A stretch of DNA of 64,000 nucleotides from an uncultured Chloroflexia bacterium (GCA_963769975.1 CAVYNS010000003.1:32551-96550), one strand, 5' to 3'; counted from the first letter of the stretch, positions 7,350 through 24,752 are shown. Made by a program: numbers and translations. Notes: generated by a model not told the origin, from the letters alone.

Positions 7350-7559
7350 TTACAATCTCCCGGCGAGCCAGAACCGGCTCTTCGTTCTCATAACGTGATC
7401 CCGGCTCCAGGTCATACACATCACACGGCAAAGCCCACATCCATGACACTTGTCTGATTCAACATCGATCCGGTCCTCTGCTGACACGAGTGCACCTGAA
7501 GGACATGTCGGCACACAGAAGGGCTCGGCGCAGTGCTTCACACAAACCGTTTTAAGCAT
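7350..7559 (-). CDS. Small 4Fe-4S ferredoxin-domain protein
   Basis: Cys motifs CAEPFCVPTCP and CHGCGLCRVMC. It lies 12 nt downstream of the GltB-like gene on the same strand. Confidence 0.7.
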   Translation of the reverse strand: MLKTVCVKHCAEPFCVPTCPSGALVSAEDRIDVESDKCHGCGLCRVMCMTWSRDHVMRTKSRFWLAGRL

Positions 7560-7571
7560 CTTCCCTCCTTT

Positions 7572-9137
7572 TTATCCCAGAATCTTGTCTACTTGTTCAG
7601 CATCAGTTTCCATTATGTATAGGATACCAGAAACATCGGTAGCTTCCCGCGTGAGAGACATTATGTCGTTCCTGTCTACATATTTAAGGGCAAATTTGCG
7701 CTCCCCAGCCATAAGTTGCCTTAAGCCAGTAGCTAACCGGTCGTAGTAGGTATAGACGCCTATTGCCGCTGGTGGTATCCTGTCGAAATCCTTCCCGTAT
7801 TTCTCTTTAAGCTGTTCCGCGGCAGTAAAAGTACGCAACAACATCTCCTGATATTTTTCGCCCCGACCGTAAGTCTCTTCCATAAGCCGTCCATGCGTCT
7901 TCCCCACCATGGCTGAGGTAAGGGTAGAGCGCCCCATGCAGACTGCTTTTACATAAGGGGCTCCCAATGCTATAGCCTTGAATACTTGGTCTTCGAGAGC
8001 AATCCCGCCAGCAATGGCGCAACTCGGAACGAATTCCCCTTTCTCATCCAGCCGTTTAAGGAATTTATAGAGAAGGCTTTCCAGATAAACTGTGGGGATG
8101 CCCCACTCATTCATCATCCGCCACGGACTCATTCCAGTGCCACCGCCGGCACCATCCACGGTGAGGAGGTCTATTCTGGCCTCCGAGGCAAATTTCACGG
8201 CCCGAGCTAAATCCACCGGTCTATAGGCTCCGGTCTTAAGGGTGACATACTTGGCACCTACCTTCCTTAGCCTTGCCACTTCTTTCAGAAATAATTCCTC
8301 ATTTACCATTCCCAGACGAGAATGGCGTTCAAACTCCTCTATCCCGCCTAATTTATGGGCTTCTTGGACGTAGGGATTCTCAGGGTCAGGGATAACAATG
8401 TATCCCCTTCGTTTAAGCTGGAGTGCTCTTTCTAAGGTCGGCAGCTTAACCTCGCCCCCGATGTCTTTGGCTCCTTGTCCCCACTTTATCTCAATGCCTT
8501 CGACGCCGAGCTTTTCTAGGGCATACTCAGGAACACCAAGGCGAGTATCTTCGACATTTGCCTGGACCAGTAGCGTTCCGTAACCTTGATACCAGTCTTG
8601 ATATACTTTTACCCTTCTTGCCAGTTCTGGAGACCTCATGATCTTGCCGTTTTTGAACTCGGCATCGGGGTCCATGCCACAAACATTTTCCCCACAGACG
8701 AGGACCGCACCACATATAGCTATGGCGATAGCTGTGCCCTCCCAATTCACCCTGGCTATTTCTGTGGAACCCAGCGCCCCTGTGAAGAAAGGAACTTTCA
8801 TCTTAATCTTCTGTCTCTTGGCACCAATTTCAGTAGATAGGTCAACGGCGGTAAAGACAGCTTTATCCGGGTCGGCTTCGATGCCCACAGCCCCAACGCA
8901 AGTCCCCTGAATGTTGAAATGAGAGAAATCCACAGGGTAATCTTTTTCTGAGCCGGCAATGACCTTGCCAAAGGGCTGAGGATATATAATCTCCCTTCCC
9001 CTGAGCGCCGACCGTCCTACTTCGCAATAGCCAGGGCAACCATCAACGCAAGTAACGCACAGTCCTGAAATAGGTGCCGGTGCTACCCTAGTTGTGGTTA
9101 CCGTGGCTGCACTGGAGTTTGGCTTGCTTAAAGTCAT
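7572..9137 (-). CDS. FMN-binding glutamate synthase family protein (GltB synthase-domain paralogue 1)
   Basis: N-terminal Cys cluster CVTCVDGCPGYCEVG. GltS FMN-domain motifs LTVDGAGGGTGMSP and IAGGIALEDQVFKAIALGA. Confidence 0.85.
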   Translation of the reverse strand: MTLSKPNSSAATVTTTRVAPAPISGLCVTCVDGCPGYCEVGRSALRGREIIYPQPFGKVIAGSEKDYPVDFSHFNIQGTCVGAVGIEADPDKAVFTAVDLSTEIGAKRQKIKMKVPFFTGALGSTEIARVNWEGTAIAIAICGAVLVCGENVCGMDPDAEFKNGKIMRSPELARRVKVYQDWYQGYGTLLVQANVEDTRLGVPEYALEKLGVEGIEIKWGQGAKDIGGEVKLPTLERALQLKRRGYIVIPDPENPYVQEAHKLGGIEEFERHSRLGMVNEELFLKEVARLRKVGAKYVTLKTGAYRPVDLARAVKFASEARIDLLTVDGAGGGTGMSPWRMMNEWGIPTVYLESLLYKFLKRLDEKGEFVPSCAIAGGIALEDQVFKAIALGAPYVKAVCMGRSTLTSAMVGKTHGRLMEETYGRGEKYQEMLLRTFTAAEQLKEKYGKDFDRIPPAAIGVYTYYDRLATGLRQLMAGERKFALKYVDRNDIMSLTREATDVSGILYIMETDAEQVDKILG

Positions 9138-9149
9138 CTGTTACCTCCT

Positions 9150-9920
9150 TCACATTTTTACTGGTATTCCCTTTTCTTTCAGGTACCTTTTTGCCTCAGG
9201 TATAGATATTTCGCCAAAGTGGAAGATAGAGGCAGCCAAAACTGCTGAGGCCTTGCCAATTGTCACCGCTTCATAAAGATGCTCCAGTTTTCCTGCCCCG
9301 CCGGAGGCAGTGACTGGAATTTTGACGGCTTCAGCCACGGCTTTAGTCATCTCCAGGTCATATCCTTTCTTAGTGCCATCGGCATCTTTGCTGGTCAAGA
9401 GAATCTCACCAGCCCCCAGTTTCTCCACCTTCTTTGCCCATTCAACAATATCTATCCCTGTGGATTCGCTACCACTTTTGACTACCACTTCTAATCGAGG
9501 CAGGCTACTTCCAGGTGGATTTTTTCGCCCATCAATGGCAACAACAAGCTTCTGCTTACCAAATTTTCTCGAAGCCTCTTTTATAAGCTCAGGATTTCTT
9601 ACAGCCGCGGTATTGACTGAGACTTTATCTACGCCAAGGGCGAATAAGGCTTTCATATCCTCGGTATCCCTAATCCCGCCACCTACGGCAAAGGGGATGG
9701 TAACCTTTTTCGCTACCTTTTTGACCCATTCCAGCCTTGTTCCTCTGCTCTCCACAGTAGCGAAGATATCAAGGAAGACAAGCTCATCTGCCCCCTCTTG
9801 ACAATACGCCTGCGCCGCTTCCACAGGGTCACGTGCGTCCCGCAGGTTGATGAACCTCACTCCCTTTACCACCCTCCCTTCTTTCACATCCAGACAGGGT
9901 ATAATTCTTATCTCTTGCAT
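9150..9920 (-). CDS. hisF: Imidazole glycerol phosphate synthase cyclase subunit HisF, paralogue 1
   Basis: IIPCLDV (Asp11), VVAIDGRK (Asp130), LTSKDADGTKKGYD, ASGGAG, AASIFHFGE. One nt separates the upstream nrpR stop from this ATG. Confidence 0.85.
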   Translation of the reverse strand: MQEIRIIPCLDVKEGRVVKGVRFINLRDARDPVEAAQAYCQEGADELVFLDIFATVESRGTRLEWVKKVAKKVTIPFAVGGGIRDTEDMKALFALGVDKVSVNTAAVRNPELIKEASRKFGKQKLVVAIDGRKNPPGSSLPRLEVVVKSGSESTGIDIVEWAKKVEKLGAGEILLTSKDADGTKKGYDLEMTKAVAEAVKIPVTASGGAGKLEHLYEAVTIGKASAVLAASIFHFGEISIPEAKRYLKEKGIPVKM

Positions 9921-9921
9921 G

Positions 9922-10440
9922 TTATATCTCCTTGAATTCTATTAAGCGCTGATATTCCATAACGGTGCTCATGGCATGATTGTCCACTTCAATGCCGGAT
10001 TCAACAGCAGCAGCTACGGGATTAAGCCCCCCTGTAAGTATCATCCCGACCTTATTTAGTTCCACGGGAACTGCACACAGAGGCTTGCTTACCTCGCCCA
10101 TCATAAGCAATCCATCCAGATTAGATGCTTTCAATCTGGCAATGACCTTTTCTGCTGTGGTTTGGCATATAGCGGGTATTTCTCGAAAATTGGCTAAAAT
10201 CCTTCCTTGCCCTTCTCTAGCTACCTGCCCGACGCTAGTCATCCTGCTCGTGATGTATATCTCTGAAGGGTCTAAGGATGAGCCCGAATACTGAATAAGC
10301 TCCACGAATCGCAAGGGCTTGTGGTTCTTGATTTGAAGGATGCCACCAAACTTGGAATCCATGGGGACACCAGCTTTAAGCAAGGCACCATTAATTAAGA
10401 CGCTGCAGATAGTAGCGAGACCTATTTTACCTTGGGGCAC
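9922..10440 (-). CDS. nrpR: NrpR-type regulator, C-terminal part of the DUF128 domain (3' fragment of a split gene)
   Basis: DUF128-like sequence (GGILQIKNHKPLRFVELIQYSGSSLDPSEIY...). It starts 2 nt after the stop of the HTH-containing ORF. Adding one G to the G6 tract at 10447-10452 fuses the two frames. Confidence 0.7.
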   Translation of the reverse strand: MPQGKIGLATICSVLINGALLKAGVPMDSKFGGILQIKNHKPLRFVELIQYSGSSLDPSEIYITSRMTSVGQVAREGQGRILANFREIPAICQTTAEKVIARLKASNLDGLLMMGEVSKPLCAVPVELNKVGMILTGGLNPVAAAVESGIEVDNHAMSTVMEYQRLIEFKEI

Positions 10441-10442
10441 AA

Positions 10443-10913
10443 TTATCCCCCCAATTTTTCACCCTGATGGGCTACAGCTACAAGGTCACTAACGCAAATC
10501 CCTGCTTGAAAAACTCCTTTCATGACTTCAATCGCCTTCTTAAATTGCCTATCGGGGAAAAAGGAGATATTAACGGGAACCCTGCCTTGATGCTTATCTA
10601 AATCGAAGTCTGTTTGGTAGGCCAGAAGTTCAATTTTAGAAGCCACAAAACCAACCTTGTCGCTGACTAAAGCACTTTCTAATTCCTCTCGACCTAGTTG
10701 GGTAATTAATCTTCCATCCCTTCCCACACTCTCTGTAAACCCACGTTCATCCATTAGCTTAAGGTGGTATCTGACAGCTCGTTCGCTTAACTCGATGCCA
10801 TCATCCTTGAGATTGTGAGAAATAACCCTGGCGCCAACAGGTTCACTGGATTGACTCAGGGTCCTGAGAATAGCGATTGTCTTTCTTTCTACGTCCTGTG
10901 TTTCGAAGCCCAT
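10443..10913 (-). CDS. nrpR: NrpR-type nitrogen repressor, winged-HTH plus N-terminal part of DUF128 (5' fragment of a split gene)
   Basis: ERKTIAILRTLSQSSEPVGARVISHNLKDDGIELSERAVRYHLKLMDERGFTESVGRDGRLIT matches the NrpR wHTH. The ATG at 10913 has a GGAGG RBS 7 nt upstream. The longer ORF reaching 11048 has no RBS. Confidence 0.75.
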   Translation of the reverse strand: MGFETQDVERKTIAILRTLSQSSEPVGARVISHNLKDDGIELSERAVRYHLKLMDERGFTESVGRDGRLITQLGREELESALVSDKVGFVASKIELLAYQTDFDLDKHQGRVPVNISFFPDRQFKKAIEVMKGVFQAGICVSDLVAVAHQGEKLGG

Positions 10914-10940
10914 GGTAAACCTCCGATATCCTGGGTAATA

Positions 10941-10954
10941 GGAAACCGTTTTCC
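10941..10954 (-). promoter_or_regulatory. Candidate NrpR operator (GGAA-N6-TTCC palindrome)
   Basis: GGAAACCGTTTTCC on the + strand, GGAAAACGGTTTCC on the - strand. It directly abuts the predicted -10 element and lies 28 nt upstream of the nrpR ATG. Confidence 0.55.
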
Positions 10955-10984
10955 ACAATACCAGAGTGAAGTCATGCTTGTCAA
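10955..10984 (-). promoter_or_regulatory. Sigma70-like promoter of the nrpR-hisF-gltB-like-fdx operon
   Basis: On the minus strand: TTGACA (10984-10979), 18-nt spacer, TATTGT (10960-10955). Confidence 0.4.
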
Positions 10985-11125
10985 GCCATGATAAGAGCTT
11001 GCTTAATTCGGTCGTTTGGTGTATCATAAGTCTTAGCCCAAAAGACAATCTCTTGAGTCTGCGTTTGAAGTGCGAGTTTAGCCATCGAGAATCGATTCAG
11101 AGAACCTACAGGAAATCTACATGAT

Positions 11126-11752
11126 ATGAGAGTAGGTGTTCTGGCTCTACAAGGAACCTTCATAGAGCATATTAGCAGTCTGCAACAATTGGGTGTAGAC
11201 GCACCTCCAATTCGCCTGCCCCATGAGCTCGATACACTGGACGGACTTATTATCCCAGGTGGGGAAAGCACTACTATGCTGAGGCTCATGGAGAGTTTTG
11301 GGTTGATTCAGCCTATAAGGGAGATAGCTCAGGATGGTTTACCTATTTGGGGAACCTGTGCCGGGATGATCTTGCTTGCCAGGAGTGTCTCTAATTATGA
11401 AATGGAGACTCTGGGCCTCATGGATGTGAAGATCAGGCGCAACGCCTTTGGCAGCCAAATTGATAGCTTTGAAGCAGATCTGGATGTACCGCTTGTGGGT
11501 GAGGAGCCATTCCATGCTATTTTCATTCGAGCCCCGGTCATCGAAGAGGCCAAGCCAAGTGTAAAAATCCTCTCTCGTCTTCCCGATGGCACCATCGTCG
11601 CCATCAGACAAAATCGGCTGCTGGCTTGTGCTTTCCACCCGGAGTTTACCGACGACTTGAGGTTCCATAACTATTTCTTGAATATGGTTAGCCAAAAACT
11701 GTCCCACAATCCTGAGGATGGGATCCTTCGAGGTAGCCGGCTTGGGTCTTGA
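11126..11752 (+). CDS. pdxT: Pyridoxal 5'-phosphate synthase glutaminase subunit PdxT
   Basis: MRVGVLALQGTFIEH, GLIIPGGESTTM, WGTCAGMILLA (catalytic Cys), FHPE. Confidence 0.9.
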   Translation: MRVGVLALQGTFIEHISSLQQLGVDAPPIRLPHELDTLDGLIIPGGESTTMLRLMESFGLIQPIREIAQDGLPIWGTCAGMILLARSVSNYEMETLGLMDVKIRRNAFGSQIDSFEADLDVPLVGEEPFHAIFIRAPVIEEAKPSVKILSRLPDGTIVAIRQNRLLACAFHPEFTDDLRFHNYFLNMVSQKLSHNPEDGILRGSRLGS

Positions 11753-11792
11753 AGGATGGTAGGCTCCTGGAAATTGTAGAAAGGTAGATCGC

Positions 11793-14654
11793 TTGTTCTG
11801 GATTGAGGTCTCAGTGAAGGCCGGTTTCCCTGATCCTGAGGGAGACAGGCTAGAGAAAGATATCCGTGACATTGGCATCACGGCTATAAAACAGGCTAGA
11901 GCCAGCGATGTATATCTTCTAGAGGGAGAGCTGGATGAGGTGGAGGTGGTAAAAATTGGTCAAGAATTACTGGCTGACCCTGTAGTTGAGGAGTTTTCTT
12001 GGGATGAGGGGCCCTTATCTCGTATTGAAGGTGGGGGTGCTCACATTATTGAGGTCGCTTACAATCCTGGCGTGACGGATCCCGTAGCGGGGAGTGTTAG
12101 CAAGGCAATCCGTGACCTCGGCATAGCTACGGTTACGTCTGTGAAAACCGCCCGCAAATATTCTTTACGAGGCAATATTTCGAAGGAAGCCCTTCAATCT
12201 ATCTGTGATAAGCTATTGGTTAATAGCCTGATCCAGCATGTGGTCACGAAGCGAGAGGTGGTTGCTCTCCCCTCCACAACTTACAAATTCGTCTTAACTA
12301 CTGTGGATTTGCTTAGCTTGGACGATGATGGTCTGATGGAGCTGAGCAAAGACAGGCTCTGGTTGAATCTAAGCGAGATGAGGCGCATCAGGGATTACTT
12401 CTCAAAGCTGGGCCGCAATCCCACCGATGTAGAGCTTGAAACCTTGGCACAAACTTGGTCCGAGCATTGCATCCATAAAACCTTTAGGAGCAGAATCAAG
12501 CTAGGGCAGCTTGTTGTCGACAACTTGCTTAAGAGCACTGTGATGAAGGTCACCGAGGAGTTAAAAAAGCCCTGGTGTCTTTCGGTTTTTCGAGACAATG
12601 CCGGCGTAATAGATTTCGATGGTTGCTACGCCATCTGTTTTAAGGTGGAAACTCATAATCACCCTTCGGCACTGGAGCCCTATGGAGGAGCAGCGACAGG
12701 GATAGGTGGTGTCATTCGCGACATCCTGGGGACGGGACTGGGGGCCAAGCCCATTCTGAACACCGATGTGTTCTGCTTTGCCCCTCCTGATTTTCCCTAT
12801 GATAAGCTCCCCCGCGGTGTATTGCATCCCCGCCGTATTTTCAAGGGTGTCCGCGCCGGCGTGGCTGACTACGGAAACCGACTCGGCATACCCACGCTAA
12901 ATGGTGCTATCCTCTTTGACGAGCGATACATAGGAAATCCCTTGGTTTTCTGTGGGACAGTGGGTCTGTTACCCGTGAGTATGAGCCAGAGGGGTCAGCA
13001 GCAGGCTGGAGACTTGGTGGTTTTGGTGGGAGGCAAGACTGGACGTGATGGCATCCATGGCGTTACATTTGCCTCGGGAGAACTTACCAAGGAGTCGGAA
13101 GCTATCTCGAGCAGTTCCGTTCAAATTGGCGACCCCATTACGGAGAAGAAGCTAATTGATGTCCTCCTCAAAGCACGGGACAGAGGACTATACCGGCGTA
13201 TTACCGATTGTGGAGGAGGTGGGCTTTCGTCAGCGGTGGGGGAGATGGCTGAGGAAACAGGCGTGCGGGTTTATCTGGAGCGAGTCCCTCTGAAGTATTT
13301 GGGGCTTTCTTATACAGAGATATGGATATCTGAATCTCAAGAACGGATGGTACTGGCTGTGCCACCAAACACAGTCGACCAATTGATTTCTCTTTTCCAG
13401 AGTGAGGATGTAGAAGCTACTGTCATTGGAGAGTTCACCAATACTCGACGACTTGAACTTTTCTATGAGGGCAATCTGGTTGGCAATCTCGATATGAAGT
13501 TCCTGCATAAAGGACTGCCTCAACTGGAGAAAGAGGCTGTCTGGGAATTGCCACAGCATGCTGAGCCGGATTTTCCACAGCCAACTGACCTGCGTGAAGA
13601 CCTGTTGCGTATTCTGTCCTCGTGGAATGTGTGCAGTAAGGAATGGGTGATACGCCAGTACGACCACGAGGTGCAGGGCGGTAGCGTTCTCAAACCCCTC
13701 ACAGGGGTAGACAACGACGGTCCCAGCGACGCCGCCATCATCAGACCGGTACTCGATTCAGATATGGGCATCATCGTTGCCAATGGCATCAATCCTAAGT
13801 ATGGGGACATCGACCCCTACTGGATGGCCGCCTCCGCTATAGATGAGGCATTGCGGCAGGTTGTGGCTGTTGGAGGCTGCCTTCGGAAGGTGGCGCTGCT
13901 GGATAATTTCTGTTGGGGCAATCCCGACAGGCTAGATAGACTGGGTGGCTTGGTGCGAGCGGCGCAAGCCTGTTACGATGTTGCTCTCGGCTACGAGACT
14001 CCCTTCATCTCTGGAAAGGATAGTCTTTATAATGAGTTTGAGACTGAAAAAGAGAGCGTCTGCATTCCACCCACGCTGCTCATCTCCGCTGTGGCGGTGA
14101 TGGATAATGTAGAGAGGGCAGTTACAATGGATTGCAAGAGGGAGAGCGACTTGGTCTACATCATTGGCACCACGCGGAATGAGCTTGGCGGGTCACAATA
14201 CTATGGCATTCATGGTTATATAGGAAACAGGGTGCCTCGGGTTGACCCTGAGAGAGGGAAGAGGCTCATGGACACCCTCAGCACCGCCACGGAGAAGGGC
14301 TTGGTCAAGGCTTGCCATGACCTGAGCGAAGGGGGCATTGGAGTAGCTGCCGCCGAGATGGCCCTCGCCGGAGATTTTGGGATGGTAATCCATTTAAGAG
14401 AGGTGCCGCTGGGTGAAGCCATGGACCGGGACGATTACGTGCTCTTCTCCGAATCGAATACCAGGTTCTTGATAGAGGTAGCCCCGGAGGATAGACGCCA
14501 GTTTGAAGATATGATGGCTGGGGTCGATTTCGCAGCCATTGGTCAGGTTACAAGAAAAGAAAAGCTCGAGGTTTATGGTCTTAATGAAGAAATGGTGCTT
14601 TCAGCTCCCGTTGCTGAACTCAAAGAGGCCTGGCAGAGACCTCTTCGCTGGTAG
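11793..14654 (+). CDS. purL: Phosphoribosylformylglycinamidine synthase PurL with two N-terminal PurS-like modules (PurS-PurS-PurL fusion)
   Basis: 953 aa. Two PurS-like segments sit at residues ~1-70 and ~85-155 (KAGFPDPEG..; NPGVTDPVAGSV..LLVNSLIQH). PurL core motifs follow (ETHNHPSALEPYGGAATGIGGVIRD, GRDGIHG). TTG start. Confidence 0.9.
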   Translation: MFWIEVSVKAGFPDPEGDRLEKDIRDIGITAIKQARASDVYLLEGELDEVEVVKIGQELLADPVVEEFSWDEGPLSRIEGGGAHIIEVAYNPGVTDPVAGSVSKAIRDLGIATVTSVKTARKYSLRGNISKEALQSICDKLLVNSLIQHVVTKREVVALPSTTYKFVLTTVDLLSLDDDGLMELSKDRLWLNLSEMRRIRDYFSKLGRNPTDVELETLAQTWSEHCIHKTFRSRIKLGQLVVDNLLKSTVMKVTEELKKPWCLSVFRDNAGVIDFDGCYAICFKVETHNHPSALEPYGGAATGIGGVIRDILGTGLGAKPILNTDVFCFAPPDFPYDKLPRGVLHPRRIFKGVRAGVADYGNRLGIPTLNGAILFDERYIGNPLVFCGTVGLLPVSMSQRGQQQAGDLVVLVGGKTGRDGIHGVTFASGELTKESEAISSSSVQIGDPITEKKLIDVLLKARDRGLYRRITDCGGGGLSSAVGEMAEETGVRVYLERVPLKYLGLSYTEIWISESQERMVLAVPPNTVDQLISLFQSEDVEATVIGEFTNTRRLELFYEGNLVGNLDMKFLHKGLPQLEKEAVWELPQHAEPDFPQPTDLREDLLRILSSWNVCSKEWVIRQYDHEVQGGSVLKPLTGVDNDGPSDAAIIRPVLDSDMGIIVANGINPKYGDIDPYWMAASAIDEALRQVVAVGGCLRKVALLDNFCWGNPDRLDRLGGLVRAAQACYDVALGYETPFISGKDSLYNEFETEKESVCIPPTLLISAVAVMDNVERAVTMDCKRESDLVYIIGTTRNELGGSQYYGIHGYIGNRVPRVDPERGKRLMDTLSTATEKGLVKACHDLSEGGIGVAAAEMALAGDFGMVIHLREVPLGEAMDRDDYVLFSESNTRFLIEVAPEDRRQFEDMMAGVDFAAIGQVTRKEKLEVYGLNEEMVLSAPVAELKEAWQRPLRW

Positions 14655-14662
14655 GACTTGAC

Positions 14663-15436
14663 ATGGTGACTAAGGTGAAGGCACTGATACTGCGAGCCCC
14701 GGGGACAAACTGCGACGTGGAATCTGCCTTTGCCTTCGAACGAGCCGGAGCGCGGGTGGACCTGATCCACGTTAATGAGCTTATCGGTCGACAGAAGCTT
14801 CTCTCCGATTACCAGATAATGGTTATCCCCGGCGGTTTTACTTATGGGGACGATATCTCGGCTGGGAGAATCATGGCCAACGAATTAAGGCTCAAGCTAG
14901 GGGACAAGATTCACAAGTTTGTTGACGATGGCAGGCTCATTCTGGGGATATGTAATGGTTTTCAGGTCTTGGTGAAAGCTGGCATGTTACCTGAGTCTAG
15001 GGGTGAAAACTCGCAATCGCTAACATTGGCTGGCAACGATTCCGGCAAATTTGAGTGTCGCTGGATCTACCTCCGCGCCAATAAAACTAGCCCCTGCATT
15101 TTTACACGGGGAATAGACCTTATGTATCTCCCTGTGGCCCACGGAGAGGGCAAGGTGGTAATTGAACCAGTGGCGCTAGAAGAACTAAATGTAGCACTTT
15201 ACTACGCTGACGAGACAGGAGACATTCGAGCCGGCTATCCTCACAATCCCAATGGTTCGGTGAACAACATAGCTGGTATCTGCGATGCTACTGGTCGTAT
15301 TTTTGCCCTGATGCCGCACCCGGAGCGATTCATCCGTTGGACGCAACATCCCAGGTGGACCACAGAGCCCCGGCAAGATTATGGAGATGGCTTCCGCATT
15401 TTTCTGAACGCTGTGGAGTGGGCCAAGAGCATTTGA
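14663..15436 (+). CDS. purQ: Phosphoribosylformylglycinamidine synthase glutaminase subunit PurQ
   Basis: Class I GATase motifs GGFTYGDD, GICNGFQVL (catalytic Cys), MPHPER. Confidence 0.9.
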   Translation: MVTKVKALILRAPGTNCDVESAFAFERAGARVDLIHVNELIGRQKLLSDYQIMVIPGGFTYGDDISAGRIMANELRLKLGDKIHKFVDDGRLILGICNGFQVLVKAGMLPESRGENSQSLTLAGNDSGKFECRWIYLRANKTSPCIFTRGIDLMYLPVAHGEGKVVIEPVALEELNVALYYADETGDIRAGYPHNPNGSVNNIAGICDATGRIFALMPHPERFIRWTQHPRWTTEPRQDYGDGFRIFLNAVEWAKSI

Positions 15437-15532
15437 ATAAAGGGGCGGTCTATCCTGTATTAGCCTCTGTAGACTACGGAAAATGCTTATTAATGTTTGC
15501 TATACTATTTATTATTGCCATAAGGAGGCAAA

Positions 15533-17269
15533 TTGCATAACATCAGGTTTGGGATAGCCCAGATTAATTCCACTGTTGGTGACCTCAGTGGTAATACCAG
15601 GAAAATAGTGGAATTCATTGACCGGGCAAAGTCGCTGAGAGTTGATCTGCTCACCTTTCCTGAATTGGCTATAACTGGCTACCCTCCAGAAGATTTGCTG
15701 CTTAAACCGCAATTCATTAAGCAAAATAAGGAAAGCCTTGACAAAATAATAGAGCACAGCTCAGGCATAGCAATAGTAATAGGCTTCGTCGACAGCGATG
15801 CCGATATATACAACGCTGCTGCGGTGCTCTACAACAAAAATCTGGTGGGCGTCTACCACAAATTCTATTTGCCGAACTATGGTGTATTCGATGAAAATAG
15901 GTATTTTCAGGCAGGGAAAGAATGTCCTGTTTTCACCATTTATGGCATCGGCATCGGCATAACCATCTGTGAAGACATTTGGTACGAAACCGGGCCGGCA
16001 ACAGTGCAAGCTTCTGCTGGGGCTAGATTGTTAGTTAATATAAGCGCTTCTCCATATCATGCTGGCAAGGGACTCTCTAGGGAGAGGATGCTTGCTACCA
16101 GAGCTGCCGACAACGTAGCTATTGTTGCTTACAATAATCTGGTCGGGGGGCAAGATGAGCTTGTATTCGACGGCAATAGCGTAATTTTCAACGAGAAAGG
16201 GGAGCCTGTTGCACGGGGCAGACAGTTTGAGGAAGATCTCGTAGTGGCCGATCTGGATATGGAATCGGTATTTCGTTCACAGTTGCACGACCCTCGCCGG
16301 AGGAAAGAGACACCATGGGTCAAAAAGGAATTGGAACGGATTACCAAGTTTGAAGTATCAAATGAAGGCCCCGAAGTGGCTAAGTCGCCTTTGCCACCAA
16401 GGCAGGTTGAAAGATTAAGCGAGATTGCTGAGATATACCAGGCACTTGTTCTTGGCGTCAGAGATTATGTGCGCAAGAATGGCTTTGAGAAGGTAGTCAT
16501 CGGTTTATCTGGTGGGGTTGATTCAAGTCTAGTGGCAACCATAGCAGCAGATGCCCTTGGTGCTGAGAATGTTATAGGCGTTTCCATGCCTTCTCGCTAT
16601 TCATCACTAGGCAGCAAATCAGACGCTGAAGCTTTAGCAAGAAATCTAGGCATAGAATTCAGGGTGATATCTATTGAGAGAGCATTTAGCTCTTATTTGG
16701 AAACACTGGCTGAACCTTTCAAGGATGCCCAACCTGATAGCACTGAGGAGAACGTTCAAGCGAGGATCAGGGGCAATCTCCTTTTTGCTTTGTCCAACAA
16801 GTTCGGCTGGCTGGTGCTTGCTTGCAGCAACAAAAGTGAGACAGCCATGGGCTATACTACGCTGTACGGTGATATGTCCGGAGGACTTATTCCCCTTAAA
16901 GACGTGCCTAAAACGATGGTTTATAAGTTGGCGCAGTATAGAAATCGCCAGGCTGGGAAAGGGGTGATACCACCTGCTATCTTGACCAAACCACCATCGG
17001 CTGAACTAAAACCCGACCAAAAAGATACCGATACCCTACCTCCATATGATATGCTGGATCCTATCCTCAAGGCCTATGTGGAGGATGACTTGGCGATTGA
17101 TCAAATTATAGCCATGGGTTTTGACCGCGAGACTGTCTTGAGAGTAGCCAAATTGGTGGACAGGAGTGAATATAAGCGCCGCCAAGCCGCTCCCGGTATC
17201 AAGATAACTCCCAGAGACTTCGGCCGGGATAGGAGATTGCCCATCACTAATCGATTCAGGGAAGAGTAG
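15533..17269 (+). CDS. nadE: Glutamine-dependent NAD+ synthetase (CN-hydrolase plus NAD synthetase domains)
   Basis: Nitrilase-like N-domain (FPELAITGYPPEDL, ICED) and PP-loop GLSGGVDSS. TTG start with an AAGGAGG RBS. Confidence 0.9.
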   Translation: MHNIRFGIAQINSTVGDLSGNTRKIVEFIDRAKSLRVDLLTFPELAITGYPPEDLLLKPQFIKQNKESLDKIIEHSSGIAIVIGFVDSDADIYNAAAVLYNKNLVGVYHKFYLPNYGVFDENRYFQAGKECPVFTIYGIGIGITICEDIWYETGPATVQASAGARLLVNISASPYHAGKGLSRERMLATRAADNVAIVAYNNLVGGQDELVFDGNSVIFNEKGEPVARGRQFEEDLVVADLDMESVFRSQLHDPRRRKETPWVKKELERITKFEVSNEGPEVAKSPLPPRQVERLSEIAEIYQALVLGVRDYVRKNGFEKVVIGLSGGVDSSLVATIAADALGAENVIGVSMPSRYSSLGSKSDAEALARNLGIEFRVISIERAFSSYLETLAEPFKDAQPDSTEENVQARIRGNLLFALSNKFGWLVLACSNKSETAMGYTTLYGDMSGGLIPLKDVPKTMVYKLAQYRNRQAGKGVIPPAILTKPPSAELKPDQKDTDTLPPYDMLDPILKAYVEDDLAIDQIIAMGFDRETVLRVAKLVDRSEYKRRQAAPGIKITPRDFGRDRRLPITNRFREE

Positions 17270-17319: not shown

Positions 17320-17991
17320 TCACAACTCCTTGAATTTGTATCCTATGTTTCGTACAGTCTCAATGAAGGTATGAGTTGAGTCCTCAATCTTGCTTCTCAG
17401 TCTCCTGATATGCACGTCTACTGTTCTGTCACCGCCGTAGTAGTCCCAGCCCCAAACTTTGTCCAGGAGAACATCTCGGGTAAAAACCTTTCCTTTATTG
17501 TTTGCGAGAAATTTGAGTAACTGATACTCCTTGAAGGTCAGTATTATCGGCTTACCATCAAGCGATACTTCGCACTTATCTGAATCTATAACTAAGTCGC
17601 CACATCTAATTATATCTTCGCTATCTATACTCTCTTTTTCCCTCAGAATTCGCTTTATCCTGGCTATAACCTCGGTTGCCTCACAGGGTTTGACTACGAA
17701 ATCATCTATAGCGTTGCTGGAACCGAGGCCATTGAGTTTCTCTCTGGAGAGGAGAGCGATAATGGGTATCTGTCTTTCTTGCCTTGTCCTTTGAGCCAGT
17801 TCCCATACTCCTGAACCAATTGTCGCTTCATCCGTATCTAGCAACAGCAGCGCCGGGGATTGCCCAGCAATTTGTTTGATTGTTTCATTATTCTGAGGAA
17901 CAATTAGGCAATCAAGACCTCCCTGGGCGAGATCCACCCTCAGTTTCCTTATTGGCTCGCTGTCATTGGCTATAATGAACACTCTAGACAA
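17320..17991 (-). CDS. OmpR/PhoB-family response regulator with no adjacent kinase
   Basis: Receiver domain (LLLLDTD, FVVKP) plus a winged-helix output domain (LTFKEYQLLKFL, VDVHIRRLRSKI, TVRNIGYKF). The acidic pocket reads ANDSE rather than DD(E/D). Confidence 0.8.
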   Translation of the reverse strand: MSRVFIIANDSEPIRKLRVDLAQGGLDCLIVPQNNETIKQIAGQSPALLLLDTDEATIGSGVWELAQRTRQERQIPIIALLSREKLNGLGSSNAIDDFVVKPCEATEVIARIKRILREKESIDSEDIIRCGDLVIDSDKCEVSLDGKPIILTFKEYQLLKFLANNKGKVFTRDVLLDKVWGWDYYGGDRTVDVHIRRLRSKIEDSTHTFIETVRNIGYKFKEL

Positions 17992-18113: not shown

Positions 18114-18860
18114 CTAATAAGCGTAGAGTCGGCCATAAGGGCGGAGGTAAAGGGGAAAAAGTTTAGTATATTTATATCTTAATAGCTCTTCGGCATCATA
18201 GTCAAAATGAGAAGCGAACTCACCTACGAGCTTCTTTAGAGTCAAGTAATCGTTTTCATTCAGTTCAGCGACACCTACCTCTTTGCCTAGCTGAAATTCC
18301 TGAATTTCCCCCCTCATATAGATAACGCCACCGTGCATGCCAGTGCCGATGAAATTCGCCTTATGGCGCTCTCCTTCTTTGAGGTTTAGCCCCAGGAGGA
18401 TTAGAACCCCACCTGCCATGTATTCGCCCAAAAAATCCTGCGCTGTGCCACCAATCACCACCGCTGGCTTTTTGTCTTGGTATTCTTTTATATGGATACC
18501 CGCCCGATAACCGACATCCTCTCTGACGAAGATCTTGCCTCCCCTGGCTGATAGTCCAAGGATATCGCCGGCATGGCCATGAATGATGATTTCTCCATTA
18601 TTCATAGTATTACCGCAGCCATCTTGAGCATTACCGTGGACAGTAATCCTGGGACCATCCATGAAAGCCCCTAAATCATTACCCGGGGTGCCGAATATTT
18701 CGATCTCCACTGGCTTGTCCAAATCTGTGCCGATGTATCTCTGTCCGTAGACATTTCGTAACTCGATCTTTTGAGTTCCGTTTGATACCACTTGCCTCAA
18801 TTTAGCATTGAGTTCTCGGTAAAAAATACCTTGGGCATCTATTGTTACAACTTCTTTCAT
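18114..18860 (-). CDS. Glutamate synthase alpha-subunit C-terminal (GXGXG) domain protein, archaeal-type GltB domain 3
   Basis: Repeated beta-helix GXGXG-type motifs: GTPGNDLGAFMDG, HGNAQDGCGNTMNNG, HGHAGDILG, ARGGKIFV. Confidence 0.85.
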   Translation of the reverse strand: MKEVVTIDAQGIFYRELNAKLRQVVSNGTQKIELRNVYGQRYIGTDLDKPVEIEIFGTPGNDLGAFMDGPRITVHGNAQDGCGNTMNNGEIIIHGHAGDILGLSARGGKIFVREDVGYRAGIHIKEYQDKKPAVVIGGTAQDFLGEYMAGGVLILLGLNLKEGERHKANFIGTGMHGGVIYMRGEIQEFQLGKEVGVAELNENDYLTLKKLVGEFASHFDYDAEELLRYKYTKLFPLYLRPYGRLYAY

Positions 18861-18861
18861 C

Positions 18862-20361
18862 TTAGCTTCCTGCCATTCGTACTCCGAGAATTTCTAATTC
18901 GGTATCGGTAAGCCCCACGCCTCTCAGGTGGAGGCGATTGCCACGGAGACTCTCTAAGGCATTGATACCCATGCCACCCAGTATGTCCTTAAGCTCAAGG
19001 CTCCAGCCACGAAGGAGATTAGACAGCCGTCTAGCTCCGATATCGGGGTTAACTCTCTTGGTTAGCCAGGGGTCTGGGGTACAAATGCCCCAGGCGCATT
19101 TCCCTGTATGGCATTGTTGGCATATGGTGCATCCCAGGGCAACGAGAGCGGCAGTTCCGATGTAGATGGCATCGGCGCCCAGGGCGATTGCTTTGGCTAC
19201 ATCACCACTATTTCTGATTCCGCCTGCGATGACAACAGAGGCCTGATTTCGGATGCCCTCTTGTCTGAGGCGGTCATCCACGGAAGCGAGAGCTAGTTCA
19301 ATGGGAATGCCAACGTTATCACGGATGATCTTGGGCGCAGCTCCCGTAGCGCCTCGCAAGCCATCGAGGACTATAATGTCTGCTCCTGCGCGTACCATGC
19401 CACTGGCGATAGCTGCTGAATTGTGAACAGCAGCAATCTTTACTGCTACTGGCTTGGTATAATTTGTGGCTTCCTTTAGGGCATAGACAAGCTGTGCCAG
19501 GTCCTCAATGGAGTAAATGTCGTGCTGCGGCGCTGGGGATAAAGCATCAGTTCCTCTGGGTATCATGCGGGTCATAGCTACCTCAGCGCTCACTTTTTCT
19601 CCGGGGAGATGTCCTCCAATGCCGGGCTTAGCCCCTTGCCCAATCTTAATTTCAACTATTCTGGCCACATTGAGGTATTCAGGATGAACGCCAAATCGTC
19701 CTGAAGCCACCTGGACTATAGTGTTATCTCCATATTTATAAAGCTTGGGATGAAGTCCACCTTCACCTGTATTCCACAAAGTTCCCATCTCAGCCGCGGC
19801 TCGGGCTAGGGATTCCTGCACATTCAGGCTTACTGCACCATAGGACATGGCGGAAAACATTACAGGAACCTCGAGCTTGACCTGGGGAGCCAGCTCTGTC
19901 TTGAGACCCACCGAGCTGAACTCTACCCTATCAGGTTTCTGCCCCAGATAGGTGGTCAATTCCATGGGTTCACGCAGAGGGTCAATAGAAGGATTGGTCA
20001 CCTGGCTGGCGTTGAGAACCAGATGGTCCCAATAAATGCGGTAGCTTTTATCATTCCCCATTCCGGTAAGAAGCATGCCGCCGGTCTCAGACTGCTTGAT
20101 AATGTCTTCGATAACCTCGGGACGCCAATTGTAGTTCTCTCTGTAATCCAGCGGATTTCTTCTAATGGTCAAAGCATTAGTGGGGCAAAAGACTACGCAA
20201 CGGTGGCAGCCAACGCAATTCTCTTCGCGGCTTCTTATTTCGTCGTCCTCAATATCATAAGAGTTAACGTCAAAGGTGCATTGATTGACACACACCTCGC
20301 ATCTAATACACCGAGAATCGTCTCTCTCCACTACGAATTTTGGTGGCAAATATGTCTTCAT
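18862..20361 (-). CDS. gltB: Glutamate synthase FMN/synthase domain with an N-terminal 2x[4Fe-4S] ferredoxin module (archaeal-type GltB domain 2)
   Basis: CIRCEVCVNQC and CVGCHRCVVFCP. Also GQGAKPGIGGHLPG, LDGLRGATGAAP, AGGIRNSGDVAKAIALGADA. Confidence 0.9.
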   Translation of the reverse strand: MKTYLPPKFVVERDDSRCIRCEVCVNQCTFDVNSYDIEDDEIRSREENCVGCHRCVVFCPTNALTIRRNPLDYRENYNWRPEVIEDIIKQSETGGMLLTGMGNDKSYRIYWDHLVLNASQVTNPSIDPLREPMELTTYLGQKPDRVEFSSVGLKTELAPQVKLEVPVMFSAMSYGAVSLNVQESLARAAAEMGTLWNTGEGGLHPKLYKYGDNTIVQVASGRFGVHPEYLNVARIVEIKIGQGAKPGIGGHLPGEKVSAEVAMTRMIPRGTDALSPAPQHDIYSIEDLAQLVYALKEATNYTKPVAVKIAAVHNSAAIASGMVRAGADIIVLDGLRGATGAAPKIIRDNVGIPIELALASVDDRLRQEGIRNQASVVIAGGIRNSGDVAKAIALGADAIYIGTAALVALGCTICQQCHTGKCAWGICTPDPWLTKRVNPDIGARRLSNLLRGWSLELKDILGGMGINALESLRGNRLHLRGVGLTDTELEILGVRMAGS

Positions 20362-20362
20362 C

Positions 20363-21133: not shown

Positions 21134-21174
21134 CTGCTTACACCTTCTACTTGCTAGGCTTCACACAACCTTTA

Positions 21175-22377
21175 TCAGAGATTGCCACGTCGCTTGTGCT
21201 CCTCGCAATGACGGGCAGGCTCAAGTGGCTTCTCCAAACTGCCGACAATAGGCTCACCACCCATGGGAATCCAGGCTCTGTCAAGGTCCGGGCAAACAAG
21301 ACGCATGGCTGATTCTTCTGAAGAAAGGTAAAGCACCGACCCTTTCACTCCTACGGTGAGGGGACGTAACTTTATCCTATCAGTAAGGCCAATCATCTCC
21401 CCTTGATGAGCAATGATCACAGTGAAAGGCCCGTTGAGCAAAAGGCTGCCATACACTTGGCGCAAAGTTCGGAAGATTCTTTGCTCCTCTGGGGAACAGC
21501 GCTCTATCTGACTCCATAGAGGAGGTGCTAATACCTTGGCGGCTATCTCTACCGGAAGGCCATGCCTGCGCATTAAAAGGTCAACGGCATAGGCTACTAC
21601 CTCGGTGTCGGTCTGCATAGTACAGTTGTAGCCAAACTGCTCCAAATACCGTCGATTTATGCCGTAGGAAGAGATTTCACCATTATGAACCACTGTCCAG
21701 TCCAAGATATTAAAGGGATGTGCTCCGCCCCACCAGCCAGGAGTGTTGGTGGGAAATCTGCCATGGGCTGTCCAGAGGTAACCTTCATACTGCTCCAGGC
21801 AAAAATATTCTGCTATCTCTTCGGGATAACCCACTCCCTTGAACACTCCCATATTCTTGCCGCTGGAAAAGACGAAGGCATCTTCTATCTGAGTATTGAT
21901 TTCCATGACCCTATCTACGACATACTCGTCTTCTGACTGGCTGTTAGTTCTCTCGTTTTGCACTTCAAGGAAATAACGCCACACCAGGGGAGGGTTCACT
22001 ATAGCCGGAATTGGCTTGGTGGGCACCTCTTCGGCATGAGGCACATGAAACTTTTGCTCGAGGAAATCTTCTACTCTGGCTTGCCCCTCGCGACTCAAAT
22101 ACATTATGTGGAAAGCATAACAGTTGGCATATTTGGGGAATAACCCATAAATAGCAAATCCACCACCCAGACCGTTACCCCGAACATGCATGTTGGCGAT
22201 AGCTTCTATTACCTCCTTACCTGAGAACCGCCTCCCCGCAGTATCCATCATTCCAAAGAGGGAACAGGCATCCATTACCTTATCATCGTGATAAAAGTTG
22301 TTTATCCTGCTTAACTCTTTCAATGGCTTAACCTCCTCAATGAGATAGTTATTCGCCAATAAAGGTTTCCTCTTCAC
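21175..22377 (-). CDS. Class II (Ntn) glutamine amidotransferase, archaeal-type GltB domain 1
   Basis: The candidate nucleophile is the Cys in MDACSLFGMMD. GNGLGGGF and HGRFPTNTPG motifs are present. A likelier TTG start at 22323 lies 8 nt after GAGGAGG, leaving a propeptide before the Cys. Confidence 0.85.
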   Translation of the reverse strand: MKRKPLLANNYLIEEVKPLKELSRINNFYHDDKVMDACSLFGMMDTAGRRFSGKEVIEAIANMHVRGNGLGGGFAIYGLFPKYANCYAFHIMYLSREGQARVEDFLEQKFHVPHAEEVPTKPIPAIVNPPLVWRYFLEVQNERTNSQSEDEYVVDRVMEINTQIEDAFVFSSGKNMGVFKGVGYPEEIAEYFCLEQYEGYLWTAHGRFPTNTPGWWGGAHPFNILDWTVVHNGEISSYGINRRYLEQFGYNCTMQTDTEVVAYAVDLLMRRHGLPVEIAAKVLAPPLWSQIERCSPEEQRIFRTLRQVYGSLLLNGPFTVIIAHQGEMIGLTDRIKLRPLTVGVKGSVLYLSSEESAMRLVCPDLDRAWIPMGGEPIVGSLEKPLEPARHCEEHKRRGNL

Positions 22378-23671
22378 TTTGAATAGATGGAGCGCTTTGA
22401 GGAAGCAACCCTGGCGGTGTTTCCAACAGTTCTTGCCACAATGCCCGGGGGAAAAACGCCAGGCTGAAATTATCCGCCAAAAGCGATTGTTTAAAGCTTT
22501 CTACATTGACTCTATCCCTCATTAGACCGAAAATTATGCCCGACTTTTCAATATTTTCCACGAATACCATTCCTACTATGAGATTATCTTTCAAAATGAC
22601 CTTTTGGTATTTATTGCTCTCTTGCCTGCTGATAACCTCGTAGCCGTCGTCATTGGGTGCTGTAGGCATTCCCGCTGAGGTGATGGCAATTCCAAAATAG
22701 TTGAGCGAATTCATAGTTGTGCCGCCGGGGTATTTGGTGGGGATGCCAGCCATGTTATAACCGGCAATCCTGCCTCCGGTATAAGCATTTGGCCAGATGG
22801 GGGTGAGTCTGTTCTCCTCATACACAAAATCATATGCCTCAGCCACATCCCCACAGGCATAAACACCTGGGTGGGTTGTAGCCATATGATAATCCACTAC
22901 TACGCCTCGGCTCACTTTTAACTTGGCATCTAGTGCGAGCTCTGGGCGTGGTGATACTCCAATAGCCACCAACACTAAGTCGCAAGGCATCGTCTCCCCA
23001 CTATCTAAAGTGACTCCTTGAACTGTCTCTCTTCCATTGATTTCAACCACAGTATGACCTGTAATGATTTCCACGCCAGCTCGTGTAAGAACCTCTTCAG
23101 CCATTAGAGATGCTTGTTCGTCGAGGATGGTATTTAATATTCTCTCTTTCATTTCCACTACTATTACATCAACTCCTCGCTTCACTAGAGCTTCGGTTAC
23201 GCTAATTCCGATAAGCCCCCCGCCAATAACTACTGCCTTTCTGGCGTTATCCAAGAATCTGTCAACTGCTTTAGCATCATCAAGGTTGATGAAGGTAAAA
23301 ACACCTCTTTTGTCACTCCCTTTCATCTTAGGGAAGATGGGTTTCCCTCCTACGGCGAGTAGGAGCTTTTCCCAGGCAATCTGCTCGTTGTCTTCTAACC
23401 AGGCAGTCCGGTCATTTAGCTTTAAGTGCGTCACTTTCTTGCCAGGGAGAAAGAGAATATTGTTCTGTTCATAGAAGTCGAGGGGACGGAATAATATTCC
23501 TTCCAGGGTTCGTTCTTCTGCCAGATATTTTGAGATAAGAGGGCGTGAGTAGACAGGATAAGGCTCTTCGGAAACGATAGTTAGAGCACCTTCCTTATCT
23601 AGCTGGCGTATGGCTTCAGCAGCTCCAATGCCGCCAGCCGAATTTCCTATGATTAAGTATCTAGTTTGCAT
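22349..23671 (-). CDS. FAD/NAD(P)-dependent pyridine nucleotide-disulfide-family oxidoreductase (candidate electron-input subunit)
   Basis: Two Rossmann motifs (IIGNSAGGIGAAEA; VVIGGGLIGISVTEAL) and ACGDVAE. Confidence 0.8.
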   Translation of the reverse strand: MQTRYLIIGNSAGGIGAAEAIRQLDKEGALTIVSEEPYPVYSRPLISKYLAEERTLEGILFRPLDFYEQNNILFLPGKKVTHLKLNDRTAWLEDNEQIAWEKLLLAVGGKPIFPKMKGSDKRGVFTFINLDDAKAVDRFLDNARKAVVIGGGLIGISVTEALVKRGVDVIVVEMKERILNTILDEQASLMAEEVLTRAGVEIITGHTVVEINGRETVQGVTLDSGETMPCDLVLVAIGVSPRPELALDAKLKVSRGVVVDYHMATTHPGVYACGDVAEAYDFVYEENRLTPIWPNAYTGGRIAGYNMAGIPTKYPGGTTMNSLNYFGIAITSAGMPTAPNDDGYEVISRQESNKYQKVILKDNLIVGMVFVENIEKSGIIFGLMRDRVNVESFKQSLLADNFSLAFFPRALWQELLETPPGLLPQSAPSIQSEEETFIGE

Positions 23672-23677
23672 TTATTT

Positions 23678-24301
23678 CTACCTCGTGCCTAGCGCTATCT
23701 TCAAAAAGTTAGCGTACATCTTTAATCCATGCTCACCACTTTTCTCAGGGTGGAACTGAGTTGCGACCAGGTTATCCTTGATTACCACGCTGCACATAGA
23801 TACACCATAGCTTGTCGTGCCCGCCACGACCGACATGTCTTCAGGCTCAGCATAGAAGCTGTGGACAAAGTAAAAGTTCGCTTCATCCGGTATGCCCTCA
23901 AAAACAGGATGGCTAACCCTTTGTTTCACCTGATTCCAACCTATATGAGGGATTTTAAGTCCTCGGGGCAGTCTTTTTACCTTCCCGGGAATTACTCCCA
24001 AACACTCGTGCCAGCCTCCTTCCTCAGTTCGTGAAAACAGTATCTGTAGCCCCACGCAAATGGCGAAGAGTGGTCGTCCTTGTTGTATCAGTTGACGAAT
24101 AGCATCGGTCATACCTAATTTCTCCAAGCTATTCATGGTATCGGCAGCAGCACCAACACCAGGGAGAATAACCGCAGCAGCATCAAGCACTTCGCAGGGG
24201 TCGCTTGTTACCTTTGGGTGGTAGCCCAGTTTCGTAAGGGCGTTAGCGACACTGCGCAGATTTCCCGCACCGTAGTCGATTATGGCGATTACTTTATCCA
24301 T
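23678..24301 (-). CDS. hisH: Imidazole glycerol phosphate synthase glutaminase subunit HisH
   Basis: IAIIDYGAGNLRSV, LPGVGA, FAICVGLQIL (catalytic Cys), IGWN, QFHPEKS. The ATG at 24301 lies 1 nt after the ferredoxin stop. Confidence 0.9.
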   Translation of the reverse strand: MDKVIAIIDYGAGNLRSVANALTKLGYHPKVTSDPCEVLDAAAVILPGVGAAADTMNSLEKLGMTDAIRQLIQQGRPLFAICVGLQILFSRTEEGGWHECLGVIPGKVKRLPRGLKIPHIGWNQVKQRVSHPVFEGIPDEANFYFVHSFYAEPEDMSVVAGTTSYGVSMCSVVIKDNLVATQFHPEKSGEHGLKMYANFLKIALGTR

Positions 24302-24302
24302 G

Positions 24303-24752
24303 TCATTCCTTTTCCTCATCTGCGCCCAGTACAAGCGCTTCATTAGGACAGTCAATTACACAGGCAGGTATCTCCCGACTGGGACAAAGGTCGCACTTAA
24401 TCACAGTTTTGCTATTCAGGTCGCGACTGAGCGCCCCGTAAGGGCAGGCTACTATGCATGTCCAGCAGCCAATACACTTTTCCATATCAACGGTAACCTT
24501 GTCACTTTTAGGCTCTTTATGCATCGCACCTGTAAGACAAGAATAAACACACCAGGGCTCGGCGCAGTGGCGACATTGAATCGGAAAAGAAATCTCTATA
24601 TTCCTCTCCACACGCACACGAGGCAAAGGACGCGGAGTCTCTCTTTTAAATGCTTTGATTGGGTCCTTAGATTGAGAGTGCTCCACTCGGCAATAAACTT
24701 CGCACAGTCCACAACCAATGCAGACCTCTTCCTTAACATATACTCTTCTCAT
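24303..24752 (-). CDS. 4Fe-4S dicluster (polyferredoxin-like) protein, first gene of the GOGAT operon
   Basis: Four Cys clusters: CIGCGLCEVYC, CRHCAEPWCVYSC, CIGCWTCIVACP, CDLCPSREIPACVIDCP. Confidence 0.8.
   Translation of the reverse strand: MRRVYVKEEVCIGCGLCEVYCRVEHSQSKDPIKAFKRETPRPLPRVRVERNIEISFPIQCRHCAEPWCVYSCLTGAMHKEPKSDKVTVDMEKCIGCWTCIVACPYGALSRDLNSKTVIKCDLCPSREIPACVIDCPNEALVLGADEEKE

Follow-up and report, generated by a model that had tools for sequence, protein, structure and literature searches.

Two hisF genes and hisH in a putative NrpR-type nitrogen regulon of an uncultured Dehalococcoidia bacterium

The window analysed here, a 64,000-nucleotide (64-kb) stretch of the genome of an uncultured Chloroflexia bacterium (GCA_963769975.1, CAVYNS010000003.1:32551-96550), carries two hisF genes, each located directly upstream of a gene related to gltB, which encodes the flavin mononucleotide (FMN) subunit of glutamate synthase (GltS), together with a single hisH, located in the operon of the second hisF. 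Over the roughly 21 kb from a ferredoxin gene to glnA (7350-28102), all genes belong to nitrogen assimilation or its regulation, encode glutamine amidotransferases, or encode redox partners of GltS. The explanation we favour, with a probability of about 0.62, is that hisF and hisH are working genes of imidazole glycerol phosphate (IGP) synthase that have been gathered with other glutamine users in an NrpR-type nitrogen regulon, and that HisF is not a part of GltS. The identities of the genes, the conservation of their synteny, the common and conserved promoter-operator design and the restriction to one lineage are direct observations.

Under this explanation, both hisF genes would encode the cyclase subunit of IGP synthase and hisH its glutaminase subunit, all of them housed in nitrogen operons and none in a histidine operon: nrpR-hisF1-gltS-like-ferredoxin would form one set with pdxT-purS/L-purQ-nadE, and polyferredoxin-hisH-...-hisF2-gltB-GXGXG another with amt-glnK-glnA. 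Each hisF operon would start at a sigma-70-type promoter, its -10 box followed by a variant of the NrpR operator. When 2-oxoglutarate is low, that is, when nitrogen is sufficient, NrpR would bind and block both promoters, and probably those of the divergent pdxT-purLQ-nadE and amt-glnK-glnA operons too; when nitrogen is limiting, ammonium assimilation and the glutamine-consuming amidotransferases would be de-repressed jointly, a set including glutamine synthetase (GS), the split GltS, IGP synthase, PdxT, formylglycinamidine ribonucleotide (FGAM) synthase and NAD synthetase. Shared regulation in a compact island of glutamine users would thus produce the hisF-gltB adjacency with no HisF-GltS enzyme. 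NrpR binding, the response to nitrogen and the enzyme activities are what we infer here from sequence.

Features of the two HisF copies and HisH

Domains were assigned to open reading frames (ORFs) with Pfam and NCBIfam. The initial annotation had located the two HisF genes correctly (Table 1) and had judged their products by eye to be about 55% identical; pairwise alignment gives 58% (146/251), and the IIPCLDV and AID motifs that it had picked out are present in both, within RIIPCLDV and VVAID. Both copies exceed the 294.55-bit cutoff of the TIGR00735 hisF equivalog model, match solved HisF structures strongly, and keep R5, C9, D11, K19, E46, D98, K99, N103, T104 and D130. E167, read off the GAGE(I/L)LLTS motif of the pairwise alignment, is likewise present in both, which completes the catalytic pair D11/D130 and the ammonia-gate residues R5, E46, K99 and E167 in each copy. 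Thermus HisF gives about 294 bits with either copy, and the reconstructed HisF of the last universal common ancestor (LUCA-HisF, 4evz) gives 309 bits with HisF1 and 369 bits with HisF2; by its TIGR00735 and LUCA-HisF scores, HisF2 is the more canonical copy. HisH retains the nucleophile Cys and the His-x-Glu motifs, and the three proteins look like working subunits of IGP synthase. HisF1 has its complete set of cyclase residues, so nothing points to a new chemistry.

Compared with the HisH/HisF enzymes of Thermotoga maritima and Thermus thermophilus (1GPW, 1KA9), HisF1, HisF2 and HisH match at the equivalog level and have the same pair of catalytic Asp residues, the same ammonia gate and the triad motifs of HisH. 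They differ in that the window genes lie outside a his operon, in that a single hisH in the window accompanies two hisF, in that hisH and hisF2 are parted by two GltS genes, and in that some members of the HisF1 clade deviate at D98 and R5. A scan of the 64-kb window, covering ORFs of 150 aa or more, found no hisA, hisB or hisI, as had been noted before, nor any other his gene besides hisF1, hisF2 and hisH. HisF-fold paralogues of glycan amidation, WbuZ and the AglZ/HisF2 family, are also encoded outside his operons; both were rejected as identities for the window proteins, which score above the hisF cutoff but below those of WbuZ (HisF1 259.9 and HisF2 273.6 bits, cutoff 299.7) and of the AglZ/HisF2 family (230.3 and 223.4 bits, cutoff 310), and which have no glycan context.

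When 13 HisF1-type, 80 HisF2-type and three outgroup sequences are placed in a neighbour-joining tree, each type is monophyletic, and both clades co-occur on single contigs (the window and the related loci L125, L143, L144 and L148). The two types share 51-61% identity, similar to that of either with Thermus HisF; the split is therefore old, or one copy was acquired, and a recent duplication is not indicated. Whether HisF1 forms a distinct, GltS-associated clade had been put forward as a check; HisF1 does form a clade of its own, and the steadiest neighbour of hisF1 is nrpR, not the GltS-like gene.

The coexistence of separate clades could also mean that HisF1 is a specialised isozyme beside nrpR, using free ammonia or another glutaminase, with HisF2 and HisH as the housekeeping enzyme; we regard this as unlikely, and it would be compatible with co-regulation. 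No second hisH lies beside hisF1 at the loci examined, and HisF1 has the lower scores against both the hisF model and LUCA-HisF. Within its clade, 7 of 13 sequences have N or S in place of D98, and 3 of 13 have K in place of R5 (orthologues in L003, L004, L009, L067, L069, L077 and L144); both positions are invariant in the 80 HisF2. D98 of HisF, which partners a HisH lysine in Thermotoga, serves in HisH docking, and its variation together with that of R5 hints at a looser coupling to HisH in the HisF1 clade. However, the window HisF1 itself has both D98 and R5, the docking Asp being present in both window copies, and Asn98 may still permit docking.

Promoters and the palindrome common to both operons

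Each of the two hisF operons is preceded by one of the two best minus-strand promoter matches (Table 1), and at both, a palindrome GG(A/T)AACCGTTT(T/A)CC trails the -10 box by 0-7 nt. The pattern GGWAACCGTTTWCC has exactly two matches in the 64 kb, both directly after the -10 of these TTGACA promoters, and the looser GGNAA-N4-TTNCC recovers the same two sites only. Operator 1 is an exact GGAA-N6-TTCC, and operator 2, identical to it in the core, has the variant form GGTA-N6-TACC. The NrpR operator of methanogens, GGAAN6TTCC (PMC2723118, PMC4335013), stands upstream of glnA, amt, nif and pdxT, and both palindromes fit the role of candidate NrpR operators. A protein with the winged-helix and NRD domains of NrpR (PF08461 + PF01995) is encoded in the hisF1 operon; NrpR homologues of Dehalococcoides were noted in 2007 (PMC1852104), and the literature on bacterial NrpR regulons yielded nothing relevant beyond that note. 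Because both promoter regions face divergent operons, two sites may govern nitrogen genes over some 21 kb. Plain co-regulation of ammonia and glutamine systems, one of the two possibilities raised in the initial annotation, is well supported and is made specific by this promoter-operator design, which both operons share and which matches the NrpR operator.

In 15 of 43 orthologous loci, the strict palindrome stands at a distance of 42-58 nt 5' of the polyferredoxin gene; with one mismatch allowed, it was seen by eye in about 35 of 45 promoters of polyferredoxin operons; it also occurs upstream of nrpR in L001, L003, L009 and L082, and upstream of hisF1 in L084. As in the NrpR regulon of Methanococcus maripaludis and other methanogens, the window has nrpR and an operator-like palindrome near pdxT, amt and glnA. 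It differs in its bacterial host, in the addition of hisH/hisF, the split GltS and the GltS-like gene to the putative regulon, in the GGTA/TACC ends of one operator, and in encoding an OmpR/GlnR-like regulator as well.

Several observations weigh against a shared NrpR regulon as the whole explanation. The nrpR gene is frameshifted in the window by a 1-nt deletion in a G-run (10430-10450), relative to the intact 330-aa gene of L001, and it is intact in L003 as well; the frameshift may be genuine, making nrpR a pseudogene, or may stem from the assembly, and in the former case the operator would need another copy of NrpR. Strict GGAA-N6-TTCC sites are barely enriched in the window (4 against 1.7 expected), and the ends of operator 2 deviate from the strict form; the significance of the palindrome thus rests on its extended shared core, its placement after the -10 and its conservation in relatives, and not on the strict scan. 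The palindrome is absent from L144, from L145 and from a group including L098 and L108. Finally, both hisF genes stand directly 5' of a GltB-type gene, an outcome that random placement within the regulon would give with a probability below 1% (a rough estimate), and co-regulation alone leaves this double placement unexplained.

Half-sites of the GTTAC type are found repeatedly a short way 5' of the -35 box of the GltS operon (24800-24860, and the promoters of L087-L164). Together with the OmpR/GlnR-like gene, they suggest a second control of the activator type.

The GltS-type neighbours of hisF and their conservation

The window encodes a split GltS, its full-length PF01645, PF01493 and class II glutamine amidotransferase (GATase) proteins occurring together, with a polyferredoxin and a Pyr_redox_2 flavoprotein in the same operon as dedicated electron-input partners. 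It shares with archaeal-type split GltS, including a putative F420-dependent form (PMC3448663), the separate GATase, FMN and GXGXG genes, an FMN subunit with an N-terminal ferredoxin domain and the modularity of the electron-input partners; it differs in that hisH and hisF2 are interleaved and in that electrons would enter through polyferredoxin and Pyr_redox_2, with neither GltD nor FrhB. This input had been called non-canonical, but its novelty is partial: the polyferredoxin and Pyr_redox pair also accompanies the split GltS of a Firmicutes locus (L063) and so is not peculiar to this genome.

The GltB-type gene beside hisF1 is of another kind. Its 521-aa product is 28% identical to the GltB of the operon over 369 aligned columns, and it matches PF01645 above the gathering score (62.5 bits) yet only at profile positions 187-302 (116 of 369), short of a full-length match; neither NCBIfam nor a sequence search of the PDB returned a match for it. 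The post-barrel Cys cluster by which GltB binds its Fe-S centre (CxxCxxCxxxxC) aligns to a Cys-free stretch, and the family has instead a conserved N-terminal CxxCx3Cx3C. The AlphaFold 2 model (mean predicted local distance difference test score, pLDDT, 81) shows an FMN-type barrel to which Foldseek matches lactate and glycolate oxidases, GltS (1llw, 1ea0) and inosine monophosphate dehydrogenase about equally (E ~1e-7). We infer that it is a separate FMN/Fe-S reductase of nitrogen metabolism. The retained QGAK, GGE and R244 motifs make 2-oxoglutarate its probable substrate, the 69-aa ferredoxin would feed it, and a gene resembling L-2-hydroxyglutarate oxidase often comes next after it (L001, L002, L067 and L084, in addition to the window).

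This family comprises 150 representative clusters below E 1e-30 and at least 597 genome loci in many anaerobic phyla, including Desulfobacterota, Nitrospirota, Firmicutes and Aminicenantes among others; across phyla, the neighbours of the gene are glnA, nrpR, glnK, nadE, amt and split GltS, and literature searches gave no relevant account of the family. Its redox partners are interchangeable: L001-L005 keep the 69-aa ferredoxin gene downstream, other phyla do so more weakly, and in protein P0232 the GltS-like domain is fused to FrhB, which recalls the putative F420-dependent GltS (PMC3448663). In L084 (2926-5942), from another Dehalococcoidia group, genes resembling NuoE, NuoF and the N-terminal part of NuoG lie between hisF1 and the GltS-like gene, an insertion that implies NADH-linked electron input in that group.

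The initial annotation, in placing each hisF 5' of a GltB FMN paralogue, was correct on the adjacency, but the 521-aa protein is related no more than distantly to the FMN domain of GltB, and the description as a duplicated gene pair does not hold, since the GltB-like genes come from two separate families. A segmental duplication of a hisF-gltB pair was rejected on the 28% identity and on the wide occurrence of the 521-aa family without hisF, which also implies that the two juxtapositions arose separately.

The adjacency itself is not unique to this genome, and some 90 contigs from related Dehalococcoidia show the same layout of hisF. Scanning metagenomes with HisF2 gave 80 loci with HisF2 identities of 80-98%, and essentially all that are long enough keep the order polyferredoxin-hisH-Pyr_redox-GATase-hisF2-gltB-GXGXG-glnR-like, the OmpR/GlnR-like gene following GXGXG in nearly all. 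A pdxT-like gene is inserted in the operon of L117, L142, L148 and L154, and L145 (6605-10955), L163 and L165 have hisH-pdxT-hisF2 without any GltS genes, followed in L145 by glnR-like and glnA. Interconversion of the GltS-bearing and GltS-free hisH-hisF2 layouts would take several separate insertions or deletions. On the other side, the order nrpR-hisF1-GltS-like is found in several further Dehalococcoidia metagenome-assembled genomes (MAGs), and hisF1 has the GltS-like gene close by in the window, L001-L004, L006, L009, L012, L067, L069, L077, L084 and L144, at a spacing of 12 nt to 3.1 kb. Adjacency to hisF is conserved only within the Dehalococcoidia lineage: among about 55 loci from other phyla with at least 1 kb upstream, no hisF lies in the flank of the 521-aa gene, the split GltS of L063 and L080 has the GATase followed directly by the FMN subunit, and that of L066 also lacks hisF.

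These data bear on the proposal that HisF is a physical part of GltS-type enzymes, an ammonia-conducting barrel that bridges glutaminase and FMN subunit. In its favour, both hisF genes stand directly 5' of a GltB-type gene, at gaps of 1 and 12 nt, some 70 related loci without exception place hisF2 between GATase and gltB, and the split GltS lacks the central domain. Fused bacterial GltB has the domain order amidotransferase-central-FMN-beta-helix, and the order GATase-HisF2-FMN-GXGXG is colinear with it; by this colinearity, HisF2 could stand in for the central domain. In a moonlighting version of the proposal, HisF would be an ammonia-conducting adaptor, HisF2 replacing the central domain and HisF1 coupling HisH-derived or free ammonia to the reductive amination of 2-oxoglutarate by the 521-aa reductase, which has no GATase. 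Against this stand the split GltS enzymes and 521-aa genes of other phyla that do without hisF, the variable spacing between hisF1 and the GltS-like gene, for which nrpR is the steadier neighbour, and the GltS-free hisH-pdxT-hisF2 loci. Moreover, both HisF retain the full cyclase set and pass the hisF equivalog model, neither matches PF04898, no HisF-GltS fusion was seen (the single fusion found being FrhB with the GltS-like domain), and literature searches gave nothing of relevance on a HisF-GltS linkage. A GltS partnership of the HisF barrel, the other possibility of the initial annotation, is hence not supported; we consider both a structural role and the moonlighting adaptor very improbable.

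Neutral shuffling of genes in a rearrangement-prone region, with no regulatory or functional meaning, is also very improbable. An integrase gene lies at 3301-4239, the flank differs between relatives, and the operon does not always hold the same genes, some loci having pdxT inserted and others no GltS genes; but the order has held over about 80 loci with HisF2 identities down to 80%, the same conserved operator heads both operons, and the nitrogen theme runs through all genes of the 21-kb stretch.

Layout of the nitrogen island and wider meaning

The host is bacterial, since the window carries a class A RNase P RNA, and protein matches place it among uncultured Dehalococcoidia/Dehalococcoidales: the 521-aa protein shares 98% identity with one from MAG GCA_049586675.1, and the best matches are all Dehalococcoidia. 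The nitrogen island as a whole (4263-28102) comprises asnB, the LhgO-like oxidase, the nrpR operon, pdxT-purS/L-purQ-nadE, the GlnR-like regulator, the GltS/hisHF2 operon and amt-glnK-glnA (Table 1). ORFs and family matches reproduce the minus-strand order given earlier, from polyferredoxin to GXGXG, and coordinates agree with the junctions described: 12 nt between hisF1 and the GltS-like gene, 41 nt between GATase and hisF2, 6 nt between hisH and Pyr_redox, and 1 nt each at hisF2/gltB, gltB/GXGXG and polyferredoxin/hisH. The start of the GATase is ambiguous, the GTG at 22377 overlapping Pyr_redox and the first ATG lying at 22275; for hisH, the ORF listing starts at 24355, but the ATG at 24301 suits the HisH model.

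Table 1. Genes, promoter-like sites and candidate operators of the nitrogen island (window coordinates).
Feature	Coordinates	Strand	Remarks
asnB, glutamine-dependent asparagine synthase	4263..5954	-	PF00733 + GATase_7; island edge
FAD oxidoreductase, L-2-hydroxyglutarate-oxidase-like (LhgO-like)	5969..7081	-	PF01266; NF008726 258.5 bits, under its cutoff of 299
69-aa 4Fe-4S ferredoxin	7350..7559	-	final gene of nrpR operon
521-aa GltS-like FMN-barrel protein	7572..9137	-	partial PF01645; N-terminal CxxCx3Cx3C
hisF1, IGP synthase cyclase subunit paralogue	9150..9920	-	TIGR00735 347.6 bits
nrpR, split into two ORFs	9922..10913	-	PF08461 + PF01995; 1-nt deletion near 10441
candidate operator 1, GGAAACCGTTTTCC	10941..10954	.	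directly after -10 of nrpR-hisF1 promoter; common to divergent pdxT
promoter-like site TTGACA-18-TATTGT, TG-extended	10955..10984	-	nrpR-hisF1 operon
pdxT - purS/L fusion - purQ - nadE, divergent operon	11126..17269	+	all glutamine-dependent
OmpR/GlnR-like regulator	17320..17991	-	PF00486 + weak GlnR_1st; 3' of GltS operon
GltS GXGXG (beta-helix) subunit	18114..18860	-	PF01493, 110.4 bits
GltS FMN subunit (gltB), N-terminal 2x[4Fe-4S] ferredoxin domain	18862..20361	-	PF01645 453.7 bits, full length
hisF2, more canonical HisF copy by score	20363..21133	-	TIGR00735 388.5 bits
GltS class II GATase subunit	21175..22377	-	PF00310, 46.7 bits; start uncertain
FAD/NAD(P)H oxidoreductase, Pyr_redox_2 + Rubredoxin_C, PadH/NirB-N-like	22349..23671	-	Pfam, NCBIfam
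hisH, glutaminase subunit	23678..24301	-	TIGR01855 222.8 bits; Cys + His-x-Glu motifs
polyferredoxin, first gene of operon	24303..24752	-	Fer4_11; AegA/HydN-like
candidate operator 2, GGTAACCGTTTACC	24786..24799	.	7 nt after -10 of GltS/hisHF2 promoter; common to divergent amt
promoter-like site TTGACA-17-TAGGAT, TG-extended	24806..24834	-	GltS/hisHF2 operon; conserved in relatives
amt - glnK - glnA, divergent operon	25100..28102	+	Pfam

The integrase gene at 3301-4239, of the tyrosine-recombinase type, flanks the island. At the position of asnB, L001 (13240-15702) and L002 carry two integrase genes and a 193-aa ORF, which makes this a variable spot. Further along the window, two neighbouring genes of the PAC2 family precede a gene for a ChlI/ComM-like AAA protein (29073-32510); PAC2 proteins are chiefly familiar from archaea and eukaryotes. 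A lone TrpE/PabB-like chorismate-binding component I gene (41602-43173) lies between sucCD and a carboxyltransferase gene, with no adjoining glutaminase subunit, and a 1573-aa protein of PKD, Ig-like and cadherin-like repeats is encoded at 59106-63827, where GC content rises to 55% and AT skew is strong.

For annotation, the position of hisF next to gltB should not be taken as a sign of a functional complex, and the uncharacterised, widespread and nitrogen-linked 521-aa FMN/Fe-S family offers a concrete target for enzymology. If the favoured explanation is true, the window would be a bacterial instance of the archaeal NrpR system, with a regulon that has captured IGP synthase and reaches beyond nif, glnA and amt. 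Two bidirectional operator promoters would then control ammonium uptake, GS/GltS and many glutamine-consuming amidotransferases, including an enzyme of the histidine pathway, and would illustrate how glutamine is rationed in an obligate anaerobe whose genome is small.

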